Source: a virus. Taken from it: 64,000 nt of DNA. The notes under the pieces were generated by a model. The model did not search any database. It was not told the DNA's origin and was given only the letters and a program-made list of their open reading frames with translations. Position numbers and translations under genes: made by a program. Below are positions 12,364 to 64,000 of the stretch, in pieces. Positions within the stretch are counted from its first letter, which is position 1; every line of letters starts with the position of its first letter. The stretch is from IMG/VR virus record IMGVR_UViG_3300023110_000024, positions 12,602 to 76,601 of that record; one strand, written 5' to 3'.

Positions 12364-12993
12364 TTAGATACCGCCACCTGTAGCAAGAGTGCTAATAGTT
12401 CTACCAACATTAGTTCCAATACCGCCAGCCGAAATAGGCGACTGAATTGCGTTATCAAATCTAATAGTCAATGCTATTTGCACTACATCTGAGGTAGCGT
12501 AGTTCAGCGTGTTGTAGTTGGCACTTTCCAAAAAGCATCCGTAAAGTTCAAAAGTTTCCAATACAGTTGCTGCATGTGCGCCATTACCACCGTCAAGTAT
12601 TTCGATAGTCATTGTAAACTTATAATCTAAACCTGAGGCAGCACTTGATTGCTCATAGAAATCTAATTGTTTCTGTAGTTGCTCGCCAACAAGTTTTTGA
12701 ACATTGTTGTTTACATCTTCACGCAAGTTAACTGAAAGTGATTCCCAGCTATGCTTGCCTGCTAAATTTACCTTTGAGTTGTACACATCGACTGTGATAG
12801 GCTCAAATGATACAGAAGGACGACTAACATCAATTACTTGTTTTGTCAATTCTGTTGTTGGAGTTGAAACTCCAAAGTTGTTAAATGTTACCCTAAACCG
12901 ATATTGTAGTTTGGGCATCAACAGCCCTTGAGCGCTGGGCGAATCGCCCGTCGCTAATGGTACTGTCATTCTTGATAATGTTGCTATAGACAT
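12364..12993 (-). CDS. gp19: Tail tube protein (gp19-like)
   Basis: 209 aa directly downstream of the sheath; PKLQYRFRV, AGKHSWE, DYKF..IEILDG and LTIRFDNA tube motifs. Confidence 0.88.
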   Translation of the reverse strand: MSIATLSRMTVPLATGDSPSAQGLLMPKLQYRFRVTFNNFGVSTPTTELTKQVIDVSRPSVSFEPITVDVYNSKVNLAGKHSWESLSVNLREDVNNNVQKLVGEQLQKQLDFYEQSSAASGLDYKFTMTIEILDGGNGAHAATVLETFELYGCFLESANYNTLNYATSDVVQIALTIRFDNAIQSPISAGGIGTNVGRTISTLATGGGI

Positions 12994-60165: not shown

Positions 60166-60269
60166 AATATTCCTATAACTTTATAGCTATATTTAGCAAT
60201 CAAAACCTAATCAAAATATACGGCAGATTTTTGGTGATAAATAAAACTACAGTATTATGGAGATTAATA

Positions 60270-61109
60270 ATGCAAAACATTGCCCCTTTTAGTGGTAAAT
60301 TAACAAAATTTTATAGACAGCCAAAGGTATACATTGGGCTTCCGTCTGGCGGAAAGTTCTACACCAATGACTTTATTGATGGCGATATTGGAAACATACC
60401 AGTCTTTGGTATGAACGCCATGGATGAGATCATGTTCAAAAATCCAGATGCACTTTTTACTGGAGAAGCTACTGTAGCAGTTATCAAATCGTGTATTCCT
60501 GCCATAAAAGACCCATGGAAGCTATCACAAATTGATATGGATACAGTTTTAATTGGTATTAGAATTGCTACATTTGGAGAGGCGTTAGGGTTGTCGTTTG
60601 TTTGTCAAAAATGTAAGGCAACTCAAGAAATAGATTTCAATTTATTGTCAGCCTTAGACTATTATAGCAAATTGACATACAATTCTAATGTATTTGTTGA
60701 TCCTTTGACATTCAATTTGCGTCCTTTGACATATAAAGAAGGCACCGACCTACAGATTGAAGCATATCGGTTACAAAAATCTATAAATCAACACACAAAG
60801 GATGATGACATTGAGAGATTTAAGTATCTAGAAGAGTTTTATAGGTTATTTGGCAAGCTACAAGCAAATAATATACAAAATCAAATTGAATCTATTACAG
60901 TCGATGAAGATATTATATCAAATCAATCAGAGATTATTGAATTTATTAATAATAGTGAGTCACATTTTTATACAAAAGTAAAAGAAGCTATCGATGGTGA
61001 AAAAGAGAGGTGGCAGATACCCGAACAGGCTGTTACTTGCACTGAATGCTCACACGAACAAACTACTAATATAGGACTAGATAACTCAGCTTTTTTCGTC
61101 AACAAGTAA
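60270..61109 (+). CDS. gp26: Baseplate hub/tail assembly chaperone (gp26-like); start revised to 60270
   Basis: RQPKVYIGLPSGG, DEIMFKNPDAL, IRIATFG and two CxxC; ends FFVNK; GGAG and TAAATA (60238-43) precede ATG 60270. Confidence 0.75.
   Translation: MQNIAPFSGKLTKFYRQPKVYIGLPSGGKFYTNDFIDGDIGNIPVFGMNAMDEIMFKNPDALFTGEATVAVIKSCIPAIKDPWKLSQIDMDTVLIGIRIATFGEALGLSFVCQKCKATQEIDFNLLSALDYYSKLTYNSNVFVDPLTFNLRPLTYKEGTDLQIEAYRLQKSINQHTKDDDIERFKYLEEFYRLFGKLQANNIQNQIESITVDEDIISNQSEIIEFINNSESHFYTKVKEAIDGEKERWQIPEQAVTCTECSHEQTTNIGLDNSAFFVNK
61091..61097 (+). other. Candidate -1 ribosomal frameshift slippery site T TTT TTC
   Basis: X XXY YYZ heptamer correctly phased (GCT TTT TTC) three codons before the stop; the -1 frame stays open to 61330. 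Confidence 0.65.
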
Positions 61110-61150
61110 TTCCCCTCTCGAGCTCTGAAATATTAGAGCTGTCCAAAAAA

Positions 61151-61330
61151 ATGGAAGCAGAAGCCAAAGAGATAAAGTATAATGTCTTTAAGATATGTTG
61201 GTATATGCGTGGAGGAGTAACTGCTCGTGAATTATTTTGGGATTATTCAGCAGAAGATAGGATGATCCTTAACGATATTATAAAAGAAAATATAGAATTA
61301 GTCAATAAAACTGGTATGCCACTACTATAA
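61151..61330 (+). CDS. Small gp51-like baseplate/tail chaperone ORF, not in the ORF track; possibly expressed as a frameshift fusion
   Basis: MEAEAKEIKYNVFKICWYMRGGVTARELFWDYSAEDRMILNDIIKENIELVNKTGMPLL; no clear Shine-Dalgarno. Confidence 0.7.
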   Translation: MEAEAKEIKYNVFKICWYMRGGVTARELFWDYSAEDRMILNDIIKENIELVNKTGMPLL

Positions 61331-61334
61331 TCGC

Positions 61335-61810
61335 AACGATGAGTTATGTAGTGGTATACTAGCTCGTTCAGATGGGGCTAGCCCATCTTGTCTAAAGATA
61401 TTTTCATTTCGCTTACGCTCATTCAATATCTGTATCCAATTTCGCTACGCTTTCTTTCCTTTTATACATTTATAATCCTGTTAATAACTGTACTTGGGGA
61501 AGATATTCCTGTAGATTAAGTCGTCAGGTGGAACCTGTCCGCAGGTTCCATTTACTCGAAGCCAGGAATCTTCCTGTGAGTATCGCCGCCGAGGCAATAG
61601 AAGCAGGTGTTTTCTCTCAGTCCCCGGGGCTTTGGCCTCTCCCCTACCTGCACCAACATCACATAGCAGCATATTTCCCAACATTCTGCTATGTTACCCC
61701 CAACCTCGTTCCGTTGTTAGGGTTTTTGGGACTAGAGTGTGCTCACGTCAGATCCGAACTAGATGTATAAACCTAGCTCTCAAGACGGATCGAGGTTCCT
61801 CGATCAAACA
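61335..61810. ncRNA. Candidate structured non-coding element (ncRNA or replication origin)
   Basis: Largest gene-free gap in the window, GC-richer than the flanks in its 3' part, with many nested inverted repeats; strand not resolved. Confidence 0.45.
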
Positions 61811-61819
61811 TTAGAGCAA

Positions 61820-62335
61820 TTATATAGCCTTGTTACGTTTAGCGAAAGATTCGGCATTATTCTCAAAGAAATCTATCATATTTGAGATCCGCCAAACGTT
61901 TTGTGCCTTATCAGTGTAGTCTAGATGCCTGTTAACTATAAAATTGTTTGGTAATTGTGTAGCTATGAATGTGCCTTTGCGGGTTATTCTGAAGATAAGT
62001 GTGTTACAATCGCCTGGATCAGCTGCCTGTAGTGTTTGTGAGATCCAATCCTCAAGGATTGGTATTGGGCCTAGTGATAATAAGTGATGAAATGGGAAGT
62101 CTGCATAGTTTTTGCATTCAACATTGAAGTATTTCCAATCATCTGGGGGTATAATGTCACCTTTGTGTGCTCGCACTTGTCCTTCCGTGAGTTTTTCACG
62201 TCTAAATGCGTTTTTACCTCCAGTAAATGCACCAGAATCAGGAACCCTGGTGAAGGAATCGTTATATATCTCGCTTAGGTAGTTAGCTACCTCACGTTCA
62301 AACGTCTTTCCCTTTGTTTTGCTTTTGCTTGGCAA
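61820..62335 (-). CDS. Holliday junction resolvase (Hjc-like PD-(D/E)XK nuclease)
   Basis: SKTKGKTFEREVA, RVPDSGA, GDII and NVECKNY motifs. Confidence 0.8.
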   Translation of the reverse strand: MPSKSKTKGKTFEREVANYLSEIYNDSFTRVPDSGAFTGGKNAFRREKLTEGQVRAHKGDIIPPDDWKYFNVECKNYADFPFHHLLSLGPIPILEDWISQTLQAADPGDCNTLIFRITRKGTFIATQLPNNFIVNRHLDYTDKAQNVWRISNMIDFFENNAESFAKRNKAI

Positions 62336-62540
62336 ATCTTTCTCGTTTTTCTTCTAGCGTTTCTCGCATTTCAACTTGTAGTTCTTTAATTCTAACCTTA
62401 CCTAGAGTCCGAATACGCCTAAGATACCTCAAAGCTGATAGTCCATTAGCCATAGAAGGTTTTCTTTCCCACTCCCTCAGCCAATGGATGTAGTTAGCTA
62501 GTGACATCAGTATCTCATCGTGTGTATCAGACTCTTTCAT
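62298..62540 (-). CDS. Small basic hypothetical protein; start revised to 62540
   Basis: MKESDTHDEIL...; TATAAATA lies 5 nt upstream of this ATG. Confidence 0.6.
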   Translation of the reverse strand: MKESDTHDEILMSLANYIHWLREWERKPSMANGLSALRYLRRIRTLGKVRIKELQVEMRETLEEKRERFAKQKQNKGKDV

Positions 62541-62575
62541 ACGATTATTTATAGTAGTATATAATGGATAGGTTA

Positions 62576-64000
62576 TCATTCGGTTGAAAAATCATTCTCA
62601 AACGATGTAAATCCATTCTCTTTGACAACTTTTAGTACATTATTGACACGTCCTACTAGTTCATCCTTGTGTGAGATGAGGAATACATTCTTTTTCCTAT
62701 CTCTACCCATCTTTTTGATGACAGCAAGGGAGTTTTCAACACCAGCAGTGTCCATACCAGAGTCAATAAGCTCGTCAATAAACAATAAGTTGATATTCTG
62801 ATACAATGACTCCCATACATCACGGAAAGCAAAGGATAAACCAAGTATCAACCTGTTTCTTTCACCTCTACTCAAGTTATCAAAGTCTAAATCCTGCCCA
62901 AGCTGGGTAATTTCAACAGATAAGTCGTTCAAAAACAATACCTGATGGGGTAAACCTAGTTTATCTAAGTAATATGTAAGTCTATTATTCAAATAAGCAA
63001 GGTTTTGCTCAATAATCTTCTTTCTAATGAAAGAATCTTTGCTTGTAAGCAGTTTTAGCAAGAACTCTTGATGTTCTTTATATGCATTTAGCTGATTGAT
63101 GTTGTCCCAACTAATTTCTTGGATGGCAGTAGCCCGCAATTCGTCAATCTGTTCCGTATATGGATCAGTTTCACCCTGCTCACGCTCTACTGCTTGCTGT
63201 AACTGGTTGAGATTGTTCATATGCTCGTATGCTTCCTTAATATCCTCATAGAATGTCTCAGGCCTACCATTGATATCACCTATCTCACCTAGTCCCATGC
63301 GAGTATCATGAGTCTTTTTTGCTACCTCATCGAGGTATTTGTCAGCATCCTTCAACTCTTTCAGCTTTTTCTTGAGTATCTCAGCATGTTGCCCTTTCTT
63401 TAAGGGTTGTCCACAAACATAACACTCGGTATTCTCAGCTCTATTGTATTCTTCTAGAGCTTTATGTGCTGCCTTCTGTGCTCTGTTCTCTGCTGCCTCT
63501 AATGTAGCAAGCTCTTTGCGTAAATTATCAATCTGAGAGCTCTTTTCCGTCCATTGCTGTAGCTTTTCGTGCTTTTCAAGCTCTAAATCAATATCAACCT
63601 GCTCTAATTCCTTTATATTCTTCTTTAGAGTCTTGATACGCTCCTTTTTAGATGTATTCCAAGCAGATTGCTTTATAGTTAGGCTATGTATGCTGGCTTC
63701 AATAGCTTCATTTGCTGTTTGTTTAGCCTTTATAGTAGCTTCTTCCTCTGTTATAGCGTCTTTGGTGTATCTAACCTGCTCTTTGAGAGCCACAGCCTTC
63801 TCTGATAGCAGTGTTATACCTAATAATTGCTCAATAATAGCTCTCTGATCCATCTGCCTAAGGTTTAGGAACGGTTCTGTATAGGTATTGAGTGCTACAA
63901 CGTGTTTGAACATGTCATGACTCATACCTAACAGCTCATTTATGGTCTCTTGAGTCTTTCTACTATCCCCTTGGGACTCATCTAGTAGTTCCTGCTCCTG
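62576..64000 (-). CDS. gp46: Recombination endonuclease ATPase subunit (gp46/SbcC/Rad50), 5' part outside the window
   Basis: Coiled coil with CYVC zinc hook, signature LSRGE, Walker B LLFIDE and H-loop ISH; frame open to 64000. Confidence 0.93.
   Translation of the reverse strand, partial: QEQELLDESQGDSRKTQETINELLGMSHDMFKHVVALNTYTEPFLNLRQMDQRAIIEQLLGITLLSEKAVALKEQVRYTKDAITEEEATIKAKQTANEAIEASIHSLTIKQSAWNTSKKERIKTLKKNIKELEQVDIDLELEKHEKLQQWTEKSSQIDNLRKELATLEAAENRAQKAAHKALEEYNRAENTECYVCGQPLKKGQHAEILKKKLKELKDADKYLDEVAKKTHDTRMGLGEIGDINGRPETFYEDIKEAYEHMNNLNQLQQAVEREQGETDPYTEQIDELRATAIQEISWDNINQLNAYKEHQEFLLKLLTSKDSFIRKKIIEQNLAYLNNRLTYYLDKLGLPHQVLFLNDLSVEITQLGQDLDFDNLSRGERNRLILGLSFAFRDVWESLYQNINLLFIDELIDSGMDTAGVENSLAVIKKMGRDRKKNVFLISHKDELVGRVNNVLKVVKENGFTSFENDFSTE

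Follow-up and report, generated by a model that had tools for sequence, protein, structure and literature searches.

Here, we describe a structured RNA encoded on the minus strand of a 64,000-nt stretch of viral DNA (the window), which covers positions 12,602 to 76,601 of IMG/VR record IMGVR_UViG_3300023110_000024, a 76.6-kb viral record with a completeness estimate of 21%. The element, at 61466-61815 of the window, is with high confidence a real structured RNA gene on the minus strand, and its homologues occur in more than 250 contigs of uncultured aquatic T4-like, mostly giant, phages. Within it, a knotted core is followed by two similar units, each consisting of a hairpin and then a single-stranded tail ending in one 7-mer, and the two 7-mers, hereafter the twin boxes, are the same word in nearly every family member even as the word itself changes. 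The best explanation overall, and one that we regard as probably correct, is an independent non-coding RNA (ncRNA) gene, the twin-box RNA, whose knotted core displays the twin boxes in trans. A first-pass annotation of the window, made from the letters alone, had pointed to a densely base-paired ~320-nt non-coding element with a possible pseudoknot at 61490-61810, and the analysis below follows up that claim.

The element is an island of high guanine-cytosine (GC) content, with 0.505 at 61500-61799 compared with 0.33-0.40 in the flanks. Its minimum free energy is -104.3 kcal/mol on the plus strand (z -3.22) and -114.3 kcal/mol on the minus strand (z -3.51), and only 0-1 of 100 dinucleotide shuffles fold equally well. 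Read on the minus strand, the supported helices contain 243 G-U cells but just 32 A-C cells, which identifies the RNA with the minus strand of the window; the first-pass impression that G-U wobbles favour different strands in different stems does not hold, as all of them speak for the minus strand. Furthermore, the hairpin that follows the core in relatives carries a C(UUCG)G loop on the minus strand. A protein-coding test on the family alignment found no conserved reading frame with indels in threes: the longest open run has a median of 55 codons and its frame differs among members, and alignment gap lengths leave remainders of 1, 2 and 0 on division by three in 939, 485 and 225 cases, respectively. 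The proposal of a structured non-coding element at 61490-61810 is thus borne out by the GC island, by the minus-strand fold (z -3.5) and by the lack of a conserved open reading frame (ORF). Two outcomes that would have spoken against it were examined, namely poor folding together with a lack of conservation or covariation, and a conserved ORF, and neither occurred.

Homologues were initially sought by single-sequence nhmmer in loci fetched through both flanking proteins, and the element was found beside homologues of these proteins. Of 253 fetched viral loci, 135 contain the element according to an nhmmer profile, and 96 of these are distinct at <90% identity. Two DNA patterns derived from conserved blocks each match many viral contigs, so that the size of the family is known as a lower bound; the core pattern has at least 120 matches in metagenome contigs. 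Family members are about 350-450 nt long and come from marine, estuarine and freshwater sources. Among cultured phages, near and distant blastn searches with four family members as queries returned no relative of the core. The sole match, to roseophages DS-1410Ws-06 and RD-1410Ws-07, covers just an insert in the variable-length hairpin of one relative.

The fold of the core is supported by compensatory change throughout the family (Table 1). Helices were derived from mutual information and pair counts in a MAFFT alignment of 80 distinct sequences, in which 41 pairs in seven helices are 91.0% paired, compared with 78.5% after shuffling and 31-44% when partners are slid. Both sides change in 27 of the 41 pairs, and none of 500 shuffles reaches the observed scores. 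For example, all five H1 pairs change on both sides, PKa appears as GAC/GUC, GUG/CAC, GAU/AUC and AGU/ACU, and one position of D1 shows U-G, C-G and U-A. The 11-nt loop of hairpin b contains the 3' strand of PKa (61636-61634). Two crossings, of H1 with H3 and of PKa with hairpin b, make the RNA at least doubly knotted. The hairpin that separates hairpin A from PKa ranges from ~10 to ~100 nt among relatives. The 5' domain, with its pairs 95% paired, is modular and occurs in at least two types, the window representing a minority type (GUUUG and P-a, P-c, P-b); here, a conserved GUUUG precedes P-a, three pairs of which change on both sides, P-c is found as CGUC/GACG, CGCU/AGCG, CACC/GGUG and CUCA/UGAG, and P-b (61776-61759) has a variable sequence that by eye forms a hairpin in every relative. 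Two further candidate interactions were dropped. An initial long-range helix GUCGAC/GUCUGAC was abandoned, its GUCU belonging to the D1 stem and its GAC pairing into the loop of hairpin b, and a pairing between GGAA of loop A and UUCC after H3 lacks compensatory change.

Much of the single-sequence fold in the first-pass annotation survives this comparison. Its perfect hairpin at 61529-61550 corresponds to D1, which covaries and extends to 10 bp in relatives; gcaggt/acctgc is H3 and agtccc/gggact is H1, both with covariation, so the suspected pseudoknot is real; acatagcag/ctgctatgt is the covarying hairpin of variable length; and gatcgagg/cctcgatc is P-a. Three other pairings are not conserved. 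The segments 61498-511 and 61563-574 are direct repeats rather than complements in relatives, and they can pair in this lineage because both boxes read CAGGAA; the helix 61576-83/61739-46 is peculiar to this lineage; and gatccg/cggatc gives way to a conserved helix in another register, formed by CGUC (61787-84) with GACG (61749-46).

Table 1. Features of the twin-box RNA and its immediate surroundings in the window, listed along the minus strand.
Feature	Positions	Strand	Observation
PD-(D/E)XK nuclease gene, 5' neighbour of the RNA	61820..62335	-	Pfam PDDEXK_15, E 3e-24; no partnership with the RNA implied
TATAAT, -10-like, overlapping the PD-(D/E)XK stop codon; candidate promoter	61819..61824	-	Proposed from sequence
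Whole RNA	61466..61815	-	nhmmer conserved block; metatranscriptome contigs 61466-61809 and 61528-61818; G-U strand bias
P-a hairpin of 5' domain, GAUCGAG/CUCGAUC	61788..61805	-	7 pairs, 100% paired (21 sequences)
P-c helix (61787-84 with 61749-46) around P-b	61746..61787	-	87% paired; 3/4 pairs change on both sides
H1 5' strand AGUCCC, then A-rich joiner 61727-61723	61728..61733	-	95% paired
Hairpin A, loop GGAACGA	61698..61722	-	7/7 pairs change on both sides; loop nearly invariant
Variable-length hairpin	61661..61694	-	Strong pair covariation
PKa 5' strand GGU	61652..61654	-	Pairs with GCC 61636-61634; 97% paired
H3 5' strand GCAGGU	61646..61651	-	98% paired; U-A to C-G change
Hairpin b, GGGG/CCCC	61626..61644	-	97.5% paired; 2 pairs with both-side changes
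H1 3' strand GGGACU	61619..61624	-	Pairs with 61733-28
H3 3' strand ACCUGC	61603..61608	-	Pairs with 61651-46
Box 1, ACUC-ACAGGAA-G	61570..61581	-	Single-stranded in model
Hairpin D1, GGAACC/GGUUCC core, between the boxes	61526..61553	-	10 pairs, 95% paired
Box 2, AUCU-ACAGGAA-U	61505..61516	-	Single-stranded in model
Downstream hairpin word AGCGUAAGCGAAA	61407..61419	-	Single occurrence in window; 73/125 loci

The most distinctive property of the family lies in the two units after H3, whose tails in relatives read ...GAC-GAAC-UC-ACAUGAA-G and ...GAC-UGAAAC-AAUCU-ACAUGAA-N. Of 197 distinct members, 194 carry the same 7-mer twice, and in the other three the copies differ at position 7 only. Ten word variants occur, ACAUGAA being the commonest in relatives and ACAGGAA the variant of the window; positions 1, 3 and 6 are always A, and positions 2, 4, 5 and 7 vary in step between the copies. 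Mapped onto a tree of the remaining RNA sequence, each box requires ~18 changes, and the two boxes jointly require 18. This identity is not an artefact of selection, as the search patterns left the variable box positions unfixed. Additionally, a position 5-6 bases upstream of each box tends to match between the copies, and the spacing of the boxes varies from 47 to 67 nt without helical phasing. Two boxes that are identical across words and change in step demand a common reader, and free change at four of seven positions is more typical of base pairing.

Several simpler uses of the word were tried and rejected. UUGUGU, which recurs at -50, shows no covariation that would make it a partner of the boxes; mutual pairing of the boxes through CAUG is broken by the word variants; and a role as stop codons of tiny ORFs, suggested by an in-frame UGA or UAA in 75 of 80 members, fails in that no ORF leads in. 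The window shows no enrichment of the box word that would suggest a genome-wide promoter or other motif, and the complement of the word is common on the plus strand through codon usage alone. At 61498-61577 of the window, CAGGAA permits each box a small hairpin with the following UUCC(UG), and in the window lineage the two box regions can also pair together, alternative folds that are impossible in CAUGAA relatives.

Contigs assembled from four metatranscriptomic libraries of salt-marsh samples were placed on 61000-62400, and parts without cover as well as the small-share runs X19 and X20 were left out of the evidence. Five contigs fall on the element, namely 61466-61809 (the whole of a 344-nt contig), 61528-61818, 61648-61850, 61588-61677 and 61564-61732, and the flanking genes have patchy contig cover only. 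The contigs place the element in RNA libraries and hint weakly at its ends, which lie near 61809-61818 (5') and at or beyond 61466 (3'). Upstream, the TATAAT at 61824-61819 is a candidate for a promoter of the RNA's own, near which the contig ends 61809 and 61818 lie, and relatives have a comparable word, GGC(A/U)AUAUAA, 15-20 nt before the RNA; a consensus promoter scan of the window did not list this TATAAT among its matches.

Searches for known RNA classes were negative. Against the window, Rfam 15 gave no match at gathering thresholds, only chance matches to small nucleolar RNA or viral models at E 2-10, and no Rfam 15 model matched the element in ~65 related loci or in 16 related viral or MAG records. 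ARAGORN found no transfer RNA (tRNA) or transfer-messenger RNA (tmRNA) gene in the window, two-piece forms included, and no tmRNA model matched; the related phage Melnitz is known to have a two-piece tmRNA. The loop of D1 is not a T-loop, and the defining features of tmRNA, ribonuclease P (RNase P), riboswitch leaders and guide RNAs are missing. That the first-pass annotation could not match the element to tRNA, tmRNA, RNase P or a group I core agrees with the results of ARAGORN and Rfam 15. Moreover, its proposal of an undescribed structured RNA gains support from the compensatory changes, the hairpins of variable length, the G-U bias, the absence of a conserved ORF and the contigs from RNA libraries. 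None of the catalogued RNA families matches the knotted core.

Some described RNAs resemble it in part. The Polynucleobacter-1 motif (RF01718) is an orphan structured motif of Burkholderiales and of fresh-water and estuary metagenomes (Weinberg et al. 2010, PMC2864571). The twin-box RNA is likewise an orphan structured motif, but its knotted core and twin boxes are not part of RF01718, and with that model (141 positions, gathering threshold 37 bits) the window record and 10 related ones gave nothing at E <= 10, five more gave nothing at E <= 1, and ~65 related loci, among them both types of 5' domain and the freshwater family member L303, were likewise without a match. GOLLD and ROOL are large ornate ncRNAs of phages and prophages, of unknown function and found by comparative genomics (10.1101/2024.12.08.627333). 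They resemble the twin-box RNA in being large, intricately folded and phage-borne, yet share no sequence or model similarity with it; the twin-box RNA is smaller (about 350-450 nt), has boxes that covary in identity, and resides in lytic T4-like giant phages, whereas GOLLD and ROOL are found in prophages near tRNA genes. A likeness to a T-box specifier can also be drawn, the box as A-N-N-A resembling an ANN codon with a conserved purine (AUG, AUA, AUC, AGA, AGG). This is no more than a resemblance: the Stem I architecture, the T-box sequence, a downstream gene and an Rfam match are all absent and there are two identical 'specifiers'.

The best precedent for twin boxes with a shared protein is offered by the nut sites of lambdoid phages (boxA and boxB, bound by N). 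In these phages, a short site occurs twice per phage as nutL and nutR, alike within a phage and different between phages, and N reads both. Nut sites, however, are separated by kilobases, occur in mRNA leaders and form no part of a knotted RNA, the order of hairpin and then box in the twin-box RNA is the reverse of that in nut, and an N-like protein is not known here. We know of no described RNA family with twin words kept identical through at least ten changes of word. To our knowledge, large intricate RNAs are rare, and nearly all classes of solved function are ribozymes, riboswitches or the cores of ribonucleoprotein machines.

The genes around the RNA are of T4 type. The window encodes a portal protein with at most 52% identity to portals of cultured jumbo phages (e.g. 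Phosso, PA5oct and Atu_ph07), a gp53-like baseplate protein (60231-61109, plus strand) and a Rad50-like gp46 (62576-64000, minus strand). As the first-pass annotation noted, the element lies between convergent genes, with plus-strand genes ending at 61330 on one side and the PD-(D/E)XK nuclease gene on the other. The usual order in related loci is gp47 (Mre11-like), gp46 (Rad50-like), a small nuclease, the RNA, variable genes and a convergent baseplate gene, in some cases with a small ORF or porphobilinogen deaminase between gp46 and the nuclease. The nuclease slot holds a SegE-like GIY-YIG protein in ~80% of loci and PDDEXK_15 in ~13%, the window among these. In eight divergent family members, the upstream gene encodes a class II aldolase, Bax1-I or an unknown protein instead of a nuclease.

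This neighbourhood bears directly on the readings that tie the RNA to a nuclease. In nearly all loci with gp47-gp46 context, only a few bases separate the end of the nuclease gene from the RNA, and the box words vary as programmable sequences would, so the RNA could be taken for a guide or cofactor of the adjacent enzyme with the boxes as guide words. We consider this very unlikely. The unrelated folds GIY-YIG and PD-(D/E)XK occupy one slot, the word ACAUGAA occurs with both nuclease types, and the eight divergent members have neighbours that are not nucleases; a guide-RNA test likewise failed, as the variable word has 7 nt with only four variable positions, is present twice, and has two unrelated nucleases or none beside it. 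In addition, the GIY-YIG protein has its closest homologue from a cultured phage (70% identity) in Melnitz, where the gene lies after nrdB, and the RNA profile (nhmmer) found no match in the fetched flank of that gene, a change of context that fits the behaviour of a mobile seg-type (homing) gene. The nucleases look like homing-type genes beside a highly conserved target region, or like a fixed neighbour, and not like an obligate partner; with GIY-YIG, PD-(D/E)XK or non-nuclease neighbours, the RNA stands as a gene of its own. The same folds are classic among intron endonucleases, and a group I-like intron, or a ribozyme derived from one, with the nuclease as its homing endonuclease, fits the topology (and the topology only) in that a P3-P7 pseudoknot would enclose P4-P6: H1 would be P3, the A-rich joiner J3/4, hairpin A P4/P5, the variable hairpin P6 and H3 P7. 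This reading is marginally weaker still, for P8 is missing, the 3' strands of H1 and H3 being separated by an unpaired linker of 10-20 nt whose sequence varies; H3 lacks a bulge; a P1 that includes a U-G splice site cannot be drawn, and the 5' hairpin offers no U-G pair in which U would be on the 5' strand; no exons are split, gp46 being complete and the downstream genes varying; Rfam Intron_gpI has no match at E <= 10; and the RNA contigs contain no joints.

A self-cleaving ribozyme resembling that of hepatitis delta virus (HDV), with a large insertion and a cut just 5' of H1, seems hardly credible, even though the nested double pseudoknot has the same order of three helices (H1 as P1, H3 as P2 and hairpin b as P3) with abutting strands, again as a match of topology only. 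Hairpin b pairs through its loop with bases 5' of H3 and not with the joiner after P1, so P1.1 is absent; no invariant, catalytic C precedes the 3' strand of H3 (U, C or A occurs there); H1 has no G-U closing pair that would mark a cleavage site; no HDV-type Rfam model matches; and the contigs show no sign of cleavage, running uncut across 61733/61734, although contigs cannot reveal minor cleaved forms. The place of the element at the end of the gp47-gp46-nuclease operon, between convergent genes, and the single RNA contig that runs from the nuclease gene into it (61648-61850) would suit a cis-acting 3' untranslated region, terminator or insulator that stabilizes the operon's mRNA or stops convergent transcription. 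This is improbable, though less so than the other rivals: size and knotting far exceed those of known terminators and stabilizers, the structure is kept in loci with quite different upstream genes, the RNA has its own conserved -10-like word, no U-tract terminator is present here, and the twin boxes would go unexplained. Finally, the first-pass annotation had offered a folded single-stranded DNA origin or packaging signal as an alternative to RNA, in which the boxes would be iterons. Direct repeats kept identical are typical of iterons, and the element sits where the structural and recombination modules meet, beside the gp53-like baseplate gene; the T4 origin oriE likewise lies beside baseplate gene gp53. 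We find this the least plausible of the rivals, as the one-strand G-U bias and the contigs from RNA libraries indicate RNA, the box spacing is continuous (47-67 bp) and unphased, and GC skew shows no switch beyond the effect of gene orientation. We conclude that the RNA is not a nuclease guide, not an intron and not the leader of a downstream gene.

For the twin-box RNA as an independent ncRNA gene, we propose that it acts in trans, its rigid knotted core holding two single-stranded copies of one word, spaced by about 55-60 nt, toward one partner. That a shared partner in trans recognizes both boxes is, in our estimation, an evenly balanced proposition. Such a partner could be a dimeric RNA-binding protein, much as N is shared by nutL and nutR, or two copies, or a repeated site, of a base-paired nucleic acid, and we hold the nucleic acid option to be possible but tentative. 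A more specific and somewhat more doubtful version would make the boxes programmable words that base-pair with nucleic acid and read one target in duplicate; they would then act as two short guides or codon-like specifiers (A-NN-A) at a fixed distance, with a pair of tRNA anticodon loops, or a site repeated in RNA or DNA of the host or phage, as possible targets. Several points weigh against the proposed gene and its mode of action. No partner of the boxes was found, which leaves the mechanism to inference, and a complement of the box word at a constant place within ~5 kb was found neither by exact nor by G-U-tolerant search. Recombination of the 3' module could inflate the 18 joint changes, although at least nine co-changes are still required. 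The alignment was made with MAFFT and not with a calibrated covariance model; the evidence from RNA libraries consists of assembled contigs at a depth of 2-8, which give neither strand, level nor true ends, and carry-over of DNA into these libraries is possible; and the evidence for the promoter is a -10-like hexamer alone.

Further observations concern the surroundings of the RNA and its relatives. Downstream, the word GAGCG-NN-AGCGAAA, with tandem G-A flanks and a GNNA-type loop, is followed by a second hairpin at 61390-61370 (minus strand); in 73 of 125 loci the word is found 25-100 nt after box 2, and no RNA contig covers it. These hairpins (61370-61419) may belong to a longer form of the RNA as an accessory 3' module, or may be a separate element. 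Upstream, a 93-aa ORF (62298-62579) shares 38 nt with the start of the PD-(D/E)XK gene, and in L010 (3677-4519) the two form a single fused ORF of 280 aa; at other loci, this position is taken by a GIY-YIG gene, either alone or together with a porphobilinogen deaminase gene. The region between gp46 and the RNA is a gene-replacement hot spot. Inside the variable hairpin of some relatives (L056:5869-6242; L256 2501-2546) lies a 46-nt ACCGTATA...-type palindrome with 89% identity to unannotated intergenic DNA of the roseophages mentioned above, which are N4-like; it looks like a small mobile palindrome common to unrelated marine phages.

A similar search pattern found the RNA on three contigs binned into metagenome-assembled genomes (MAGs), L257 (73 kb), L258 (335 kb) and L259 (153 kb), the bins being a Crocinitomicaceae MAG and a Candidatus Neomarinimicrobiota MAG. 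These are probably mis-binned giant-phage contigs, or else a hint at hosts. The contig of L303, from a freshwater metagenome, carries a freshwater-2 RNA (RF02980, 61.8 bits, 399-477) alongside the twin-box RNA.

The forced identity of the boxes points to a partner that is shared, co-evolving and findable. Solving the function of the twin-box RNA would uncover a new ribozyme or else a new giant-phage device for RNA-protein or RNA-RNA recognition, and if the boxes do serve as programmable words, it would establish a new class of phage RNA, one in which sequence is read in duplicate. Either way, it would give access to the biology of a group of phages without cultured members.
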